Shown here one piece after another: positions 23,692-30,664 of a DNA stretch of 30,664 nt. Numbering within the stretch: the stretch's first letter is position 1; the number at the start of each line of letters is the position of its first letter. The notes below the pieces were generated by a model that was not told where the DNA came from, made no database searches, and worked only from the letters and a program-made list of their open reading frames with translations. Origin of the DNA: a virus (lineage: Duplodnaviria > Heunggongvirae > Uroviricota > Caudoviricetes); IMG/VR virus record IMGVR_UViG_2802429251_000007, positions 1 through 30,664 of that record; one strand, written 5' to 3'. A program made the position numbers and the translations under genes.

Positions 23692-23716
23692 AACCCGCCG
23701 GATGGCGGGTTTTTTG
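23692..23716 (+). terminator. intrinsic terminator after lipoprotein gene
   Basis: CCCGCC-GGAT-GGCGGG hairpin followed by TTTTTT. Confidence 0.7.
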
Positions 23717-23734
23717 CTTTCTGGAGCCTACTAA

Positions 23735-24487
23735 ATGGCAGTATCTGACCAGACCCGCAGCGGCGACCTTGCCGAAACATTTAAATCTGAACGGGAAACA
23801 ACAAAGAACCAGATCCGTGTCGCCTTGCCAGGCATTGTTCAGTCATTCGCTCCTGATGCGGTGACGGCGGTTGTACAGCCTGCTATCCGTTACGTTGAAA
23901 TTGATAACGACGGCAACCGCATTACCAAAAATTACCCATTGCTGGTGGATGTGCCAGTGGTATTCCCGCGTGGCGGAGGCTGTACGCTAACGTTTCCAGT
24001 TAAAGCCGGTGATGAATGCCTGGTGATTTTTGCCGATCGTTGTATTGATTTCTGGTGGCAGAGTGGCGGGATACAGGAGCCGGTCGATGACCGGGTGCAT
24101 GATTTATCGGATGCTTTCTGTATCGTCGGGCCGCAGTCTCAGGCGCAGAAAATAAGCGGAATAAGCACCAGTGGCGCGCAGCTGCGTAGTGACGACGGCA
24201 GCACCTATTTTGAGCTTAATCCTGATACCAGGAAAATTAAAATTGTCGCTCCGGGTGGTCTTGATGTGGTTGCCCCTCTGGCTGATTTTTCTGAGAAAGT
24301 AACCATTCATGGCCTGTTAACCTGGATGGGGGGCATGGTGGGGTCTGTTGTTTCTGGTGTGGCTTCAAAAATCACTGGTGCTGTTGAGTTTTTGGGTAGC
24401 GTGAAGGCTAACGGCAAGCTAATCGATGATACGCACACTCATGGTGGTGTTCAGCGCGGTGGAAGCAATACCGACGGAGTAAACTGA
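23735..24487 (+). CDS. putative baseplate spike/assembly protein V-like
   Basis: 250 aa, position; GGAG RBS. Confidence 0.45.
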   Translation: MAVSDQTRSGDLAETFKSERETTKNQIRVALPGIVQSFAPDAVTAVVQPAIRYVEIDNDGNRITKNYPLLVDVPVVFPRGGGCTLTFPVKAGDECLVIFADRCIDFWWQSGGIQEPVDDRVHDLSDAFCIVGPQSQAQKISGISTSGAQLRSDDGSTYFELNPDTRKIKIVAPGGLDVVAPLADFSEKVTIHGLLTWMGGMVGSVVSGVASKITGAVEFLGSVKANGKLIDDTHTHGGVQRGGSNTDGVN

Positions 24488-24840
24488 TGCGATACAGACG
24501 TGAAGACGCCGATGGCGATTACACCTTTGGCAGCGGTGATGATACCTGGCTGATTAACTCACCGGAGGCCGTGGCGCAGGCGGTAAAAACGCAATTCGAA
24601 TTGTGGTATGGGCAATGGTTTCTAGACACCACCGAAGGGACTCCGTGGATCCAGTCCGTACTCGGTAAGCAGAAGCCGGAAACCTACAATCTGGCGATCC
24701 GTAAGCGCATCCTCGAAACGCGGGGCGTTAAATCAATCCTCTCTTTCAATACTACAGTGGATACCACGACCCGACGTGTCATGTTTTCCGCTGAAATCGA
24801 CACTCTTTATGGAATAACGACTGTTACATCGGAGGCGTAA
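24487..24840 (+). CDS. putative baseplate wedge protein (gpW/gp25-like)
   Basis: 117 aa; ATGA overlap; position between spike-like and J-like genes. Confidence 0.4.
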   Translation: MRYRREDADGDYTFGSGDDTWLINSPEAVAQAVKTQFELWYGQWFLDTTEGTPWIQSVLGKQKPETYNLAIRKRILETRGVKSILSFNTTVDTTTRRVMFSAEIDTLYGITTVTSEA

Positions 24841-26039
24841 TGGCTCTGAACCTTGATTCTCTCGGTTTATCTGCAAAGGTAACCGCGGAGGGGATCAGTG
24901 CGCCTGATTATCAGACGATACTCAGCACCCTGATTGGCTATTTTCAGCAGATTTATGGCAGTGATGCCTACCTCGAACCGGACAGCAAAGACGGCCAGAT
25001 GGTGGCTCTGATGGCGCTGGCGATTCATGATGCCAATAATATGGCGATAACTGTCTACAACTGTTTTTCACCGGCAACCGGCTATGGGGCTGCACTGACC
25101 AGTAACGTGAAAATAAATGGTATTTCACGTAAAGGCGCAACGAATTCTACGGTTGATTTGCTTCTTACAGGAACTGCCGGAACAACCATCATTAATGGCA
25201 GCGTGAAAGACAGTAATAATGTGATATGGCGTTTGCCTGCTTCAGTGGTGGTCGGCGTGGATGGTACAGTGATGGCGACCGCAACATGTTCCGTCAGTGG
25301 TGCAGTGGCGGCGCTGGCTGGAACTATCACTGAAATTAATACGCCAACCCGTGGCTGGGTTTCGGTAACTAATCCTGCTGCGGCTACTGTGGGCACTCCG
25401 GCAGAAACTGACGCTGAGTTACGTATCCGCCAGTCGCAAAGTGTTGCGTTGCCATCAATAACCCCATTTGAAGCACTGGATGGTGCTGTTTCTAATGTTA
25501 CCGGTGTAACCCGCCACAAACTCTATGAAAACGATACTGGTTCGGAGGACGGTAACGGGTTACCGCCACACTCTGTTGCTGTAATTGTGGATGGCGGTGA
25601 TGTGACGGATATTGCTCAGGCTATCAGAGGGAATAAAGGCCAGGGGACAGCCACTCACGGTACAACATCCGTTACGGTTCCGGATAAATACGGCAATCCC
25701 CATGTAATCAAATTCTCGCGTTCCAGTGATGTACCTGTTTATGCCCGGATTAAATTAAAAGTTTTTACGGGTTATACCTCACAGATAGGGCAGCAGATCC
25801 AGCAGGCTATTTCCGGCTATATCAATAGTCTGATGATTGGTGATTCGGTCCTTTTAAGTCGCATTTACTCACCGGCGAATCTTGGCGTGGTGAGTGGCGG
25901 GAATGCACGCTATTACGATATTCAGGAACTGACGATTGGGAAATCCCCGGGGGCTTTGTCGTCATCAAACATTGATATCAGATACAACGAATCTGCGTCC
26001 TGTACCCCGGAAAATATCGTTATAACGGTGGAGTCATGA
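24840..26039 (+). CDS. baseplate J-like protein
   Basis: 399 aa; position and size consistent with Baseplate_J family. Confidence 0.6.
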   Translation: MALNLDSLGLSAKVTAEGISAPDYQTILSTLIGYFQQIYGSDAYLEPDSKDGQMVALMALAIHDANNMAITVYNCFSPATGYGAALTSNVKINGISRKGATNSTVDLLLTGTAGTTIINGSVKDSNNVIWRLPASVVVGVDGTVMATATCSVSGAVAALAGTITEINTPTRGWVSVTNPAAATVGTPAETDAELRIRQSQSVALPSITPFEALDGAVSNVTGVTRHKLYENDTGSEDGNGLPPHSVAVIVDGGDVTDIAQAIRGNKGQGTATHGTTSVTVPDKYGNPHVIKFSRSSDVPVYARIKLKVFTGYTSQIGQQIQQAISGYINSLMIGDSVLLSRIYSPANLGVVSGGNARYYDIQELTIGKSPGALSSSNIDIRYNESASCTPENIVITVES

Positions 26040-26716
26040 GCAAATACACCGAACTAATCACGAACTACCACGCCACCAAACCTAAATTTCTTGCGCATGT
26101 TGATCTGATGACCCGGCCACTTATTGATGTTGCGGCTGCCACCAGAGGGCTGATTACTGCATTTGATATTGACTCTGCGGTTGGTGTGCAACTTGACATT
26201 CTTGGATTGTGGATCGGACGTAGCCGTGTTGTCAGCCAGCCTATCTCAGGTGTCTATTTCAGCTGGGATACCGACGGGCTTGGATATGATCAGGGGGTAT
26301 GGCGGGGACCATACGATCCTGATTCAGGATACATGTATCTCAGCGATGAAACTTATCGTGTCATTCTTAAAGCGAAGATTGCGATTAATAACTGGGACGG
26401 ACGGAATGATTCGCTTCCGGCAATTCTTGACGCTGCAACAGCAGGATCCGGGCTGCGAATGCAGATAGTCGATAACCAGGACATGACGATATCGGTCTGG
26501 GTCTTTCCTGATACTGATATTTCAGATGTATCGCGTGAGTTAATTGCGGCAATTAAACAGGGGTATCTCACAGTTAAAGCCGCCGGGGTTTGGGCGGGTG
26601 ACATTGAAACACCTTCGGTGAAAACCCCATCGGAAGGCTCAAAATTTTTTGGTTTTGATATGGATAACGAATTTATCAGTGGTTTTGATGTAGGGGCATG
26701 GGGAGTATTACTCTGA
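26036..26716 (+). CDS. baseplate/tail protein I-like (DUF2313, YmfQ-like)
   Basis: 226 aa; position between J-like gene and tail fiber. Confidence 0.5.
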
Positions 26717-27792
26717 TGGCAAAAAATGACTTTAAAGCATTCGCAACGGGTAAAAATGCCAATGTTATGCCGCAGGAGGAATGGGAAGCGTTGCCTGCGC
26801 TTTTATCCGGATTTACAGCAGGGAAAGCATCCAGTGCGCAAGTCAATAAGGTTATTCGGCAGGCCAGCTTTATTGCATCTGCAATAGCACAATATACAGC
26901 AAATGAAAGTGGACTGGATGTACAGGACGATGGCGATCAGGCCGGCTTTATCGCAAAAATGTCGTCTGCATTAGATAAGAACTATCAGAGAATTAATGCC
27001 ATACTTACCGCACTTGCTAATCTTTCAGCATCCGAAAACAAATTACCGTATTTTACCAATCAAGATACCGCTAATTTGGCTGACCTGACACAGGTTGGGC
27101 GAGATATTTTGGCAAAAAGCTCTGTTGCTGATGTCCTTAAATATCTTGGTCTGGAAGATAATTCGACCTTTCCTGTAGGTGCCCCGATCCCGTGGCCATC
27201 AGATACAGTTCCATCTGGTTATGCTCTGATGCAGGGACAGACTTTTGACAAGTCTGCATACCCGAAACTTGCAGCCGCTTATCCGTCAGGCGTGATCCCT
27301 GATATGCGTGGCTGGACGATTAAGGGCAAGCCCGCCAGTGGTCGTGCCGTATTGTCTCAGGAACAGGACGGCATTAAATCGCACACCCACAGCGCCAGCG
27401 TATCCAGTACGGATTTGGGTACGAAAACCACATCGTCGTTTGATTACGGGACGAAAACAACCTCACTATTTGACTATGGGACCAAAACTACCAGTAACGC
27501 CGGGAGTCACACGCATTCAATACCAACATCAGATGGTGCAAACCAGGGGGGGAAAATTCCACTGACATCTGGGCGTCTGGCAACTCAATATACATCAGCA
27601 ACAACAGGTTCCTCTGGCTCACATTCTCATACTGTAGGTATTGGTTCTCATCAGCACACTGTCGGTATTGGTGCACACACGCACTCCGTTGCGATTGGTT
27701 CACATGGACACACCATCACCGTTAACGCTGCTGGTAACGCGGAAAACACCGTCAAAAACATCGCATTTAACTATATTGTGAGGCTCGCATAA
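26716..27792 (+). CDS. side tail fiber protein
   Basis: ATG 26716 overlaps upstream stop (TGATG); C-terminal HxH repeats [34 protein letters not shown]; followed by tail fiber assembly gene. Confidence 0.75.
27418..27501 (+). repeat. 30-nt tandem repeats inside tail fiber gene (GTKTTS-x-FDY, about 2.8 units)
   Basis: Read directly from sequence. Confidence 0.7.
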
Positions 27793-28370
27793 TGGAATTC
27801 AGAATGAGTGAACAACCACAGACCATAAAAATTTATAATCTGCTGGCCGGAACTAATGAATTTATTGGTGAAGGTGATGCATACATTCCACCTCATACAG
27901 GTCTGCCAGCAAACAGTACCGATATTGCACCGCCAGATATTCCGGCTGGCTTCGTGGCTGTTTTCAACACTGATGAGGCATCGTGGCATCTCGTTGAAGA
28001 CCATCGGGGTAAAACCGTCTATGACGTGGCTTCCGGCGACGCGTTATTTATTTCTGAACTTGGCCCATTACCGGAAAATGTCACCTGGTTATCCCCGGAA
28101 GGGGAGTTTCAGAAGTGGAACGGTACATCTTGGGTGAAAGATGCAGAAGCAGAAAAACTGTTTCGGAGCCAGGAGGCGGAAGAAACAAAAAACAGCCTGA
28201 TGCAGGTAGCTAGCGAGCATATTGCGCCACTTCAGGATGCTGTAGATTTGGATATTGCGACGGAAGAAGAGGCATCGTTACTGGCTGCATGGAAGACATA
28301 TCGGGTATTGTTGAATCGTGTTGATACAACAGTAGCAGCGGATATTGAGTGGCCAGTCGCCCCACAATAA
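27792..28370 (+). CDS. tail fiber assembly protein (Tfa)
   Basis: C-terminal [18 protein letters not shown]...WP..P typical of Tfa chaperones; directly after tail fiber. Confidence 0.8.
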
Positions 28371-28379
28371 AAAGAAAAA

Positions 28380-28406
28380 GCCATCGATAGAAATATCGAT
28401 GGCTTT
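28380..28406. terminator. bidirectional hairpin between convergent Tfa and acetyltransferase genes
   Basis: GCCATCGATA-GAAA-TATCGATGGC with T-rich flanks on both strands. Confidence 0.6.
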
Positions 28407-28413
28407 ATGTGCT

Positions 28414-28986
28414 CTATTTATACAATACAACACCGCTCTTTTTAGTTATATATGTGCAGTTCGATGGTATATCTTTATTTATAAAAGACATTGCGCCTAT
28501 TTTTACATTATCCCCAATTTTACGTGATAATCCAATGATGCAACAATTAGCTCCGATATCAACGTTACTACCAATTTTTACTCTTGAACCAGGTATGTCA
28601 CCATCTATCTGTCCAATCGTAGTATTCTGTCGTAACACCAGATTTTCACCAGCATCAACAGCAAAATGAACAACAATTCCAGCGTGATGGGGAATTGTTA
28701 GCCCTTTTCCAATTTTTGCTCCCAGTCCAATCTCGCAACCAAATTTGTTAATTATTTTATTGTTTAACTTTTTAGCAGCTTTCTTATGTAATTTATTACC
28801 ATTAATATACATTTCGTTAGCCAGCCGCCACCAGAAAAGGAAATTCCTGTTACGTTGTTTTTTTTCTCTGAAAAGCCTCCAGATATCCATATACTCCCGC
28901 CGTATTACTTCAGATTTCCAAAAGCTTTTTAAATCAGAAGAATTCCCAAGTAAAACAAAATGAATTGCTATTAAGTAAGATAACAC
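28414..28986 (-). CDS. hexapeptide-repeat acetyltransferase (CysE/WcaB-like)
   Basis: IGLGAKIGKGLTIPHHAGIVV...IGQIDGD...KIGSNVDIGANCCIIG hexapeptide repeats; GTG start with AAGGAG 6 nt upstream; visibly AT-rich. Confidence 0.7.
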   Translation of the reverse strand: MLSYLIAIHFVLLGNSSDLKSFWKSEVIRREYMDIWRLFREKKQRNRNFLFWWRLANEMYINGNKLHKKAAKKLNNKIINKFGCEIGLGAKIGKGLTIPHHAGIVVHFAVDAGENLVLRQNTTIGQIDGDIPGSRVKIGSNVDIGANCCIIGLSRKIGDNVKIGAMSFINKDIPSNCTYITKKSGVVLYK

Positions 28987-29138
28987 GATAATCTCCTTAA
29001 TTATTACTTTCGACCATATTAGCCCTAAATTTAATGAAGTGTAAAATCTGGTTGTTTGTTATTTAAAAGCTAAGTTCGTGATACTTTACGGATGCTGAGG
29101 AGAGCATTATACGATATTTTTCTGCACACTCATAGTAA

Positions 29139-29267
29139 CAAACACCAGAACAATGGGCGCAGGCCGGGCGATTAATTGCATCAGGCGTTCCTCGCCAGAA
29201 GGTGGCTATTATCTATGATGTTGGTGTGTCAACTTTGTATAAGAGGTTTCCGGTCGGAGATAAATGA
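29139..29267 (+). pseudogene. 3' remnant of pin/gin/hin-family DNA invertase gene (C-terminal HTH only)
   Basis: QTPEQWAQAGRLIASGVPRQKVAIIYDVGVSTLYKRFPVGDK matches invertase C-terminal HTH; stop codon directly upstream in frame, no catalytic domain. Confidence 0.65.
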
Positions 29268-29562
29268 AACCGTAGCACGTCGTATGCAAGAACGTGCCAC
29301 GGCTGGCTGATGGACGTTCGATAGCGCGAGTTTGAATGAAAATCAGCCGGCGATGATTTTACATAATTGCTACGGAATTATTCAATACAGGAATTGCTTG
29401 TGTATGCATGGATTGACCTGAAATATTCCCGAAAATTTCTCTAAAAAACTCGAAAAAAATGGTAACTAATTGAATGCATTGGTATGCAATGCTATGTGTT
29501 CAGGATTGAAAAATGCGCGCTTTTTTATTTAATATATTGATTTTAAATGATTTTATTTCTCG

Positions 29563-29595
29563 TTGACGAATACAGGAATCGTGTTCGGTCTCTTT
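29563..29595 (+). ncRNA. sdsR: 3' end/terminator of sdsR (ryeB)-like small RNA (remnant or att-reconstituted)
   Basis: GACGAATACAGGAATCGTGTTCGGTCTCTTTTT matches remembered SdsR 3' hairpin (one G/A difference); upstream sequence does not match the SdsR body. Confidence 0.45.
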
Positions 29596-29731
29596 TTATC
29601 TGTTAAAAGCCAGAAGCATTCCCTTCGCTGACTTTATAGTCAACCATAACACACACTCTACTGTCTGAGTCCAGCGTTTTTTAACATTCTTGTTAAGATT
29701 ATGTGATCTTTAGCGCGGGAGGAAAATATTG

Positions 29732-30388
29732 ATGAAACAGCCTGCGCCCGTTTATCAGAGAGTTGCGGGTCATCAATGGCGACATATCTGGCTTTCAGGC
29801 GATATACACGGTTGTCTTGAGCAGTTGCGCCGCAAATTATGGCATTGTCGTTTTGATCCGTGGCGAGATTTACTTATCTCAGTGGGAGACGTTATCGATC
29901 GTGGGCCGCAAAGTTTACGTTGCCTGCAGTTACTGGAACAACATTGGGTTCGTGCGGTAAGAGGCAATCATGAACAGATGGCGATGGATGCGCTGGCATC
30001 CCAGCAGATGTCATTGTGGTTGATGAATGGCGGCGACTGGTTTATTGCGCTGGCAGATAATCAACAGAAACAAGCGAAAACGGCGCTGGAAAAATGTCAG
30101 TATTTGCCCTTTATTCTTGAAGTACACAGTCGCACCGGCAAACATGTTATTGCCCATGCCGATTATCCGGATGATGTTTATGAATGGCAAAAGGACGTCG
30201 ATTTGCATCAGGTCTTGTGGAGCCGCTCACGATTACGTGAAGGCCAAAAAGGGCAGGGAATTACAGGTGCTGATCATTTCTGGTTTGGTCATACACCGTT
30301 GCGCCATCGCGTGGATATTGGCAACCTGCATTATATTGATACCGGTGCTGTCTTTGGGGGAGAACTGACTCTTGTGCAATTGCAATAA
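29732..30388 (+). CDS. pphA: serine/threonine protein phosphatase 1 (PPP family)
   Basis: GDIHG, GDVIDRG, GNHE metallophosphatase motifs; sequence recalled as E. coli PrpA; GGGAGG upstream of ATG 29732. Confidence 0.8.
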   Translation: MKQPAPVYQRVAGHQWRHIWLSGDIHGCLEQLRRKLWHCRFDPWRDLLISVGDVIDRGPQSLRCLQLLEQHWVRAVRGNHEQMAMDALASQQMSLWLMNGGDWFIALADNQQKQAKTALEKCQYLPFILEVHSRTGKHVIAHADYPDDVYEWQKDVDLHQVLWSRSRLREGQKGQGITGADHFWFGHTPLRHRVDIGNLHYIDTGAVFGGELTLVQLQ

Positions 30389-30580
30389 TTAAAAATCACC
30401 GTACTCCTGTGCAGGTCGCCAGAAACCATCTATAAAATCCTCAATCGGAAAACAACCGCCATGGCGGATCCGTTGATCGCTCATAGAATAAAGACACTGT
30501 TGTTCCGTGTTGTAGACATCCACAACAATATCTTCACAACCGCCATCCAGGTAGCAAACAAAAAGTACCAGCGCGAACAT
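30389..30580 (-). CDS. yebW: YebW-like small protein (63 aa)
   Basis: MFALVLFVCYLDGGCEDIVVDVYNTEQQCLYSMSDQRIRHGGCFPIEDFIDGFWRPAQEYGDF recalled as YebW; convergent with and abutting pphA; ORF-track entry has an N-terminal extension. Confidence 0.65.
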   Translation of the reverse strand: MFALVLFVCYLDGGCEDIVVDVYNTEQQCLYSMSDQRIRHGGCFPIEDFIDGFWRPAQEYGDF

Positions 30581-30664
30581 TTCATCCCCGAAGTGTGGTG
30601 CCGTACCGTTAAGTTTAGGAGAGATTTTACAACGGGGGAATAACCAGGACAAATAACCCGCCAT

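Follow-up and report, generated by a model that had tools for sequence, protein, structure and literature searches.

Does the short reading frame at 29139-29267 of this prophage descend from a DNA invertase, and if so, what became of the tail-fibre switch and of the fibre that the phage expresses? A preliminary description of this DNA had read the frame as the C-terminal helix-turn-helix of a pin/gin-like invertase, left behind when a tail-fibre inversion system was truncated. We addressed this in the window, i.e., the whole stretch of 30,664 nucleotides analysed here, whose prophage is a SEN34/vB_EcoM-611R5-like myovirus with ~96% identity to 611R5 over the structural and baseplate genes. We conclude with high confidence that the fragment is a non-functional pinE pseudogene, the C-terminal remnant of a PinE-type switch that was replaced by a block of fibre and acetyltransferase genes, and that the junction is probably older than the prophage.

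Identity of the fragment

The features at and around the fragment are as follows (the basis of each assignment is given in brackets).

29108-29141, plus strand: junction DNA 5' of the remnant (local alignments)
29133-29138, plus strand: two in-frame stop codons, TAG (29133-29135) and TAA (29136-29138), directly 5' of the remnant (sequence, translation)
29139-29267, plus strand: frame between stops, reading QTPEQWAQAGRLIASGVPRQKVAIIYDVGVSTLYKRFPVGDK (sequence and translation)
29142-29267, plus strand: pseudogene remnant, codons 144-184 and stop of a PinE-type serine DNA invertase, HTH_7 domain only (tblastn, Pfam HTH_7, Gin 3uj3, DNA identity)
29268-29362, plus strand: native pinE 3' flank, kept with the remnant (homology to DNA downstream of pinE in L006 and L001, up to 29362)

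Using the intact 184-aa PinE of an E. coli prophage as a query, residues 144-184 were found at 29142-29264 on the plus strand with 38/41 identities (93%, E=3e-22, tblastn), followed by the frame's own stop, TGA, at 29265-29267. The surviving piece therefore comprises the last 41 codons, which encode the helix-turn-helix DNA-binding domain. The Pfam family HTH_7 (PF02796, resolvase/invertase helix-turn-helix) was matched above its gathering score (E=1.9e-10, 41.1 bits against a cut-off of 23.8), and the remnant aligned with residues 144-181 of the 193-residue Gin structure PDB 3uj3 (E=1.6e-11) and with the Hin DNA-binding domain 1hcr (E=1.2e-7). By Pfam score and by both structures, it thus carries the C-terminal HTH_7 domain of the Hin/Gin/Cin/Pin invertases, as had been proposed, and the matches to PinE, Gin, and Hin are highly significant.

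The relationship is also visible in the DNA. Homology to pinE begins abruptly at 29142/29143, is 100% over 89 nt (29142-29230) to several intact pinE alleles, and continues for ~95 nt beyond the stop codon into the pinE 3' flank. Short helix-turn-helix motifs are common, and the name given by PGAP, 'helix-turn-helix domain-containing protein', is generic; both would suit a chance resemblance or the gene of a stand-alone regulator. We give this explanation practically no credence, as the PinE tblastn match and the 89-nt identity to intact alleles refute it, together with E-values of 1e-10 to 1e-22 and the sharp onset and downstream extension of the DNA homology.

Upstream of 29142, direct comparison with intact pin revealed no pin-derived sequence, and for the junction DNA at 29108-29141 homology to intact pin was undetectable by this comparison. 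Of the 34 nt of this junction DNA, 27 are shared with another, diverged remnant of pin that was found in E. coli 2015C-3163, within a lambdoid effector prophage; judging from that remnant, 29125-29141 could possibly be decayed pin codons with a 4-nt deletion. Within the 3' flank lies a conserved hairpin (~29270-29301). It was considered as a CssrB-like sRNA and rejected, as the 3' hairpin of Rfam CssrB alone matches (29.6-30.8 bits against a threshold of 76), and as a terminator, since it has no T-run and its fold is no better than that of shuffled sequences (z = -0.12).

Loss of the catalytic part and probable loss of expression

The window was searched in six frames with intact PinE and Cin (tblastn, 30.6 kb), and no other significant match to either protein was obtained. 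Because residues 144-184 alone were found, the catalytic domain is absent rather than frameshifted, and a frameshifted or displaced copy within the window can be excluded. The N-terminal resolvase-type catalytic domain with its serine nucleophile (~residues 1-100) and the E-helix are not in the window; a minus-strand acetyltransferase gene lies 5' of the remnant instead. The earlier statement that an in-frame stop sits just upstream and that the catalytic domain is missing was therefore confirmed by the TAG TAA pair and the tblastn search, and no full-length invertase emerged from the other frames when frame errors were allowed for. In Gin, Hin, and Cin the Fis-dependent recombinational enhancer sits in the 5' coding part of the invertase gene; as this DNA is absent here, the enhancer would have been lost with the 5' part of pin.

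No ATG, GTG, or TTG start gives 30 aa or more in the remnant frame (ORF list, minimum 30 aa), which thus lacks the start codon expected of a functional invertase gene. The sole internal GTG would yield 21 residues without helix 1 and most of helix 2. Because of the two upstream stops and the lack of a usable start codon, the remnant is, judged by its sequence, almost certainly untranslated and inert. Within the remnant, the copies of a lambdoid prophage (L001) and of strain 2014C-3061 (L002) have a premature stop, which fits neutral decay. The window copy has no such stop, and, being 100% identical to intact pinE over 89 nt, it could be young or refreshed by gene conversion; its state is not by itself proof of decay.

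The uninterrupted frame of the window copy and its 93% amino-acid identity to intact PinE could also mean that the isolated helix-turn-helix is kept because it is useful, either as a small peptide that occupies pix/gix half-sites and dampens the inversion driven by a co-resident Pin-family enzyme, or as DNA that provides the divergent promoter of the acetyltransferase gene with a regulatory element or a terminator. In favour of such a role, the isolated 52-residue domain of Hin, whose crystal structure is 1hcr, binds hix DNA. Pin invertases are moreover able to act in trans on other prophages (PMC12529663). The stops directly upstream, the lack of a start giving at least 30 aa, and the truncated 21-residue product of the internal GTG nevertheless speak against a peptide, and the downstream hairpin is thermodynamically ordinary and without a T-run. 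In addition, both other copies examined are interrupted within the domain, and PGAP calls a pseudogene in 16/16 copies. A retained function is therefore very improbable, and we regard the fragment as a pinE pseudogene.

Crossover sites and the tail fibre

The following features of the fibre region and its surroundings bear on the fate of the switch.

26698-27792, plus strand: single uninterrupted tail fibre gene stf, 364 aa (ORF list)
26877-29141, no strand assigned: block standing in for the invertible switch of E. coli BH100N (blastn of the window and L002 against L013; L013 annotation)
27134-27159, plus strand: stf position aligned with the pixL site of relatives (consensus scan, 13/20, and protein alignment)
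27792-28370, plus strand: tail fibre assembly protein Tfa, 192 aa, sole copy in the window (Pfam Caudo_TAP, E=1.4e-41)
28414-28986, minus strand: hexapeptide-repeat (LbH; CysE/WcaB/EpsC-like) acetyltransferase, 190 aa, between tfa and the pin remnant (Pfam Hexapep)

Crossover sites were sought with a self-built 20-position consensus for the 26-bp gix/cix/pix sites, which was checked on loci with working switches. Real sites scored 17-19/20 in the e14-type loci L006 and L007, the cix sites of the P1-like JL22 17-18/20, and the two pix sites of the BH100N prophage 19 and 17 of 20. In the window, the best score was 13/20, which is chance level: shuffled copies of the window reach 12-16, and 13/20 is reached or exceeded by shuffled sequence in nearly every trial. 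Nothing above shuffles was thus found in the fibre gene and its flanks, in agreement with the preliminary description, in which no recognisable gix-type sites had been noted.

Two of the seven top 26-mers lie at suggestive places, one in stf at the pixL-equivalent position (27134) and one in the gap between the acetyltransferase gene and the remnant (29059); both score 13/20 and were rejected as sites. The former, 27134-27159, codes for LKYLGLED, as compared to the pixL-coded LENLGLGE of switch-bearing relatives, and its DNA retains the central CTTGG. It may represent the degenerated pixL-equivalent position, with a score indistinguishable from chance. A 14-nt inverted repeat (27025-27038/29085-29098) was dismissed as well, as about one such pair per 3.7 kb is expected by chance according to our estimate.

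Long inverted repeats were not found in the window, nor was a second, oppositely oriented fibre C-terminal segment or tfa; the acetyltransferase gene is the sole minus-strand ORF between tfa and the remnant. This agrees with the previously noted absence of alternative fibre segments. As stf and tfa are single intact ORFs, Stf/Tfa would be fixed as one fibre type, and the view that the expressed fibre variant is locked is upheld by the intact genes together with the missing sites and segments. Invertases can act on foreign segments, as PinQ acts on the P segment of e14 (PMC12529663). Because the crossover sites are absent, an enzyme supplied in trans by another prophage should not be able to act here.

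The fibre gene itself is a mosaic. Residues 1-60 of Stf are common to the switch-bearing relatives, and from 27171, i.e., from the collar domain (residues 161-208, Pfam) onward, the protein is lambda-Stf-like; the homology breakpoints are 26876 and 27171. The tfa gene has ~87% DNA identity to lambda tfa. Rfam 'IS009' matches 28135-28333 at 189 bits, wholly within the tfa coding sequence, and this model appears to have been built on a conserved piece of prophage tfa genes.

Comparison with an intact relative

E. coli BH100N harbours a prophage of this family (L013) in which the arrangement is complete, with the DUF2612 gene followed by stf, tfa, tfa' (minus), Sv' (minus), and a 184-aa pinE (plus), and with pix sites at 5043 and 6883 of that locus. 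Two segments of the window align collinearly with this locus, 23704-26876 at 97% identity and, from pin codon 144 on, 29142-29311 at 95%. In between, the 2,265 bp at 26877-29141 stand opposite 2,513 bp in BH100N, where the two pix sites, the two chaperone genes, the alternative end of the fibre, and the first 143 codons of pin are located. The block in the window contains the middle and C-terminus of Stf, Tfa, and the minus-strand hexapeptide acetyltransferase; compared to BH100N, it lacks the C-terminal part of the switch-type Stf including pixL, the tfa, tfa', and Sv' of the switch, pixR, and pin up to codon 143.

In strain 2014C-3061 the version of the window is present at the chromosomal site that is occupied by the BH100N prophage, with both flanks conserved into host DNA. 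As the two prophages share site and flanks, the switch-bearing and the replaced states behave as alleles. The proposed truncation of the inversion system is thus substantiated by an intact relative, in which 2.51 kb with stf-tfa-tfa'-Sv'-pinE and two pix sites are present at the place of the 2.27-kb replacement.

Origin and spread of the junction

Among 5,426 complete E. coli genomes, 16 carry the junction of acetyltransferase gene, spacer, and truncated pin, at 93-96% identity; two types of phage are involved, and attachment sites other than that of the prophage described here. PGAP labels all of them (16/16) as a pseudogene, 'helix-turn-helix domain-containing protein; incomplete; missing N-terminus'. 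A lambdoid prophage with the order gpJ-lom-stf-tfa, located near yecD/aspS (L001), shares window positions 27171-29362, and the same-family prophage of 2014C-3061 has the junction at yfhH. The cassette of Stf end, Tfa, and acetyltransferase also occurs in other settings: in a P2-like prophage it is present without the pin stub, with homology stopping at 29068, and in the P1-like JL22 (L003) it is enclosed by the two cix sites of a C segment that is complete and has a full-length cin. The cassette was already noted by the authors of the JL22 study, who described its acetyltransferase as being of unknown role (PMC9603915).

A further pin stub was observed in E. coli 2015C-3163 (L012, 3001-3211), where an unannotated, ~75% identical C-terminal piece follows nleH and nleF in a lambdoid prophage that has no acetyltransferase gene there. 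As it shares non-pin junction DNA with the window, this stub looks like an old truncation that spread.

It had been suggested that the truncation was caused by whatever brought in the acetyltransferase segment. The acetyltransferase cassette indeed lies ~155 bp from the remnant, within the block that replaces the switch of BH100N, and a truncation made in situ, in this very prophage, by the event that inserted the acetyltransferase would account for this arrangement. However, an identical junction occurs in the lambdoid prophage at yecD/aspS, in the same-family prophage at yfhH, and in 16 genomes in total, so that an origin in situ is unlikely. The same cassette is found inside an intact cix-flanked segment with full cin in JL22 and without any pin remnant in the P2-like prophage (homology ending at 29068), while the diverged stub behind nleF shares 27/34 nt of non-pin junction DNA without an acetyltransferase gene. 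The causal part of the earlier suggestion is therefore unproven, given the intact switch of JL22 and the nleF stub. The data rather suggest that the truncation is old and spreads by recombination as part of a module, and that it is not demonstrably caused by the acetyltransferase gene. Given its distribution over 16 of the 5,426 genomes, two phage types, and other attachment sites, the junction was probably inherited within a mobile module of ~2.2 kb and not made in the prophage of the window.

The neighbouring acetyltransferase

The gene between tfa and the remnant belongs to the phage family phrog_2154 (E=1.7e-84), a phrog without assigned function. All NCBIfam equivalog scores are far under their cut-offs, with EpsC as the best (75 bits against 150) and CysE at 62 against 211; the identification as a true CysE was rejected on these scores, as were WcaB and EpsC. 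As an assignment, the general hexapeptide-repeat fold alone is supported by the sequence. A promoter-like site for the gene is predicted on the minus strand at 29045-29016. In SEN34, an unrelated 364-aa O-acetyltransferase occupies the corresponding position, which makes the gap behind tfa resemble a slot for cargo genes. Phages of four unrelated architectures (lambdoid, P2-like, P1-like, and SEN34-like) were observed to have the phrog_2154 acetyltransferase together with Tfa and a lambda-like Stf end.

Prophage boundary and other features of the window

The prophage ends ~300 bp past the remnant.

29567-29597, plus strand: right prophage boundary (attR core), formed by the 3' hairpin and T-run of the sRNA SdsR/RyeB (sub-threshold Rfam SdsR/RyeA matches, terminator scan, host flank)

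Host pphA and a yebW-like gene follow, a flank that is present in all E. coli genomes. Integration took place in the 3' end of the SdsR/RyeB-RyeA pair (29530-29601), upstream of pphA, and the SdsR terminator hairpin alone is present at this end. The sdsR locus has been reported to be used repeatedly for integration (PMC3333887, with reference to Balbontin et al. 2008). In E. coli 2011C_4037 (L010), a different, lambdoid nleG7 prophage is located at the sdsR site, with 99.3% att-proximal identity over window positions 29275-29420. The host flank at 29300-30664 (pphA, yebW-like gene) is at most ~97% identical to any of the 5,426 complete E. coli genomes, which suggests that the source is a somewhat divergent Escherichia lineage.

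Several RNA features were recorded elsewhere in the window. The Rfam sok antitoxin RNA matches 1166-1340 above its gathering score (108.6 bits), which suggests a hok/sok-type toxin-antitoxin locus in the early region of the prophage. At 3405-3606, isrK, the C4 antisense RNA, and its a1/b1 targets match above the gathering score; this is an antisense control module like immI of P1/P7 that probably regulates an antirepressor. Two adjacent phage-borne tRNA genes, tRNA-Thr(TGT) and tRNA-Gly(TCC), lie at 5355-5508.

Discussion

In the order of events that we infer, the ancestor of the SEN34/611R5-like prophage would have closed its tail operon with a Mu/e14-style host-range switch, arranged as stf(constant)-pixL-Sv-tfa-tfa'(-)-Sv'(-)-pixR-pin. 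A 2.27-kb block with a lambda-like Stf C-terminus, Tfa, and the oppositely oriented acetyltransferase gene would then have taken the place of all DNA between Stf codon 61 and pin codon 143, these codons included. With this DNA, the phage would have lost the two crossover sites, the alternative segments for fibre and chaperone, and the catalytic domain with its serine nucleophile. The junction travels within a module of ~2.2 kb (27171-29362), which probably recombines between unrelated phages via the conserved fibre collar and the 3' end of pin. The replacement could have been either a single step or an insertion of the acetyltransferase gene followed by a deletion, and the transfer could have gone either from this family to the lambdoid phages or in reverse.

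A more far-reaching idea is that the Stf end, Tfa, and the LbH acetyltransferase, whether or not accompanied by the pin stub, form a self-contained module that is exchanged among at least four unrelated architectures, that it links receptor specificity to a surface-modifying enzyme and so protects the lysogen from phages with the same fibre, and that the pin stub is kept as a recombination handle for replacing switches. We put this forward as a speculation that is distinctly improbable as a whole.

The fragment is an invertase pseudogene of an ordinary kind, and both the kind and the junction are already recorded in the public annotation of other E. coli genomes. Its importance beyond annotation is small; the fragment should be labelled a pinE pseudogene with a missing N-terminus and the prophage treated as having a single fixed tail fibre. 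It does provide a clean and mappable case of the loss of a host-range switch, in which the breakpoints are exactly defined by an intact relative and a sister phage has decayed in the mirror-image way. It also demonstrates the movement of fibre cassettes, cargo genes included, from one phage to another, unrelated one.

Comparison with known systems

Among known systems, PinE of e14 and of Mu-tail-type prophages is the closest counterpart: the 41 residues of the window are 93% identical to its residues 144-184, with DNA identity of 100% over 89 nt, and the 3' flank of the remnant and its orientation relative to stf and tfa correspond to the e14/Mu arrangement stf-tfa-tfa'-Sv'-pin(+). Unlike the PinE systems, however, the window has no counterpart of residues 1-143, which comprise the catalytic domain and the E-helix, and it contains neither the invertible segment nor the two 26-bp pix sites. 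The invertase pseudogenes of other E. coli prophages include those with the same junction that PGAP annotates in 16 genomes. The prophage of the window differs from them in its attachment site (sdsR/pphA), and its copy of the remnant is free of the internal stop seen in L001 and L002, the E. coli copies that were examined.

The C segment of the phage-plasmid JL22 has the same lambda-like Stf C-terminus, Tfa, and acetyltransferase ('sacF'), with 87.5% identity over 27171-28985 (PMC9603915). In contrast to the window, its switch is complete, with 602-bp inverted repeats, two cix sites of 17-18/20, U', Sv', and full-length cin. Finally, vB_EcoM-611R5 belongs to the same family as the prophage described here, has its fibre module at the prophage end, and likewise carries a decayed switch, but the decay is opposite: in 611R5 (L008, 5944-6279), tfa', Sv', and a pix site are retained along with pin residues 1 to ~88, and it is the C-terminus of pin that has been replaced by unrelated DNA.
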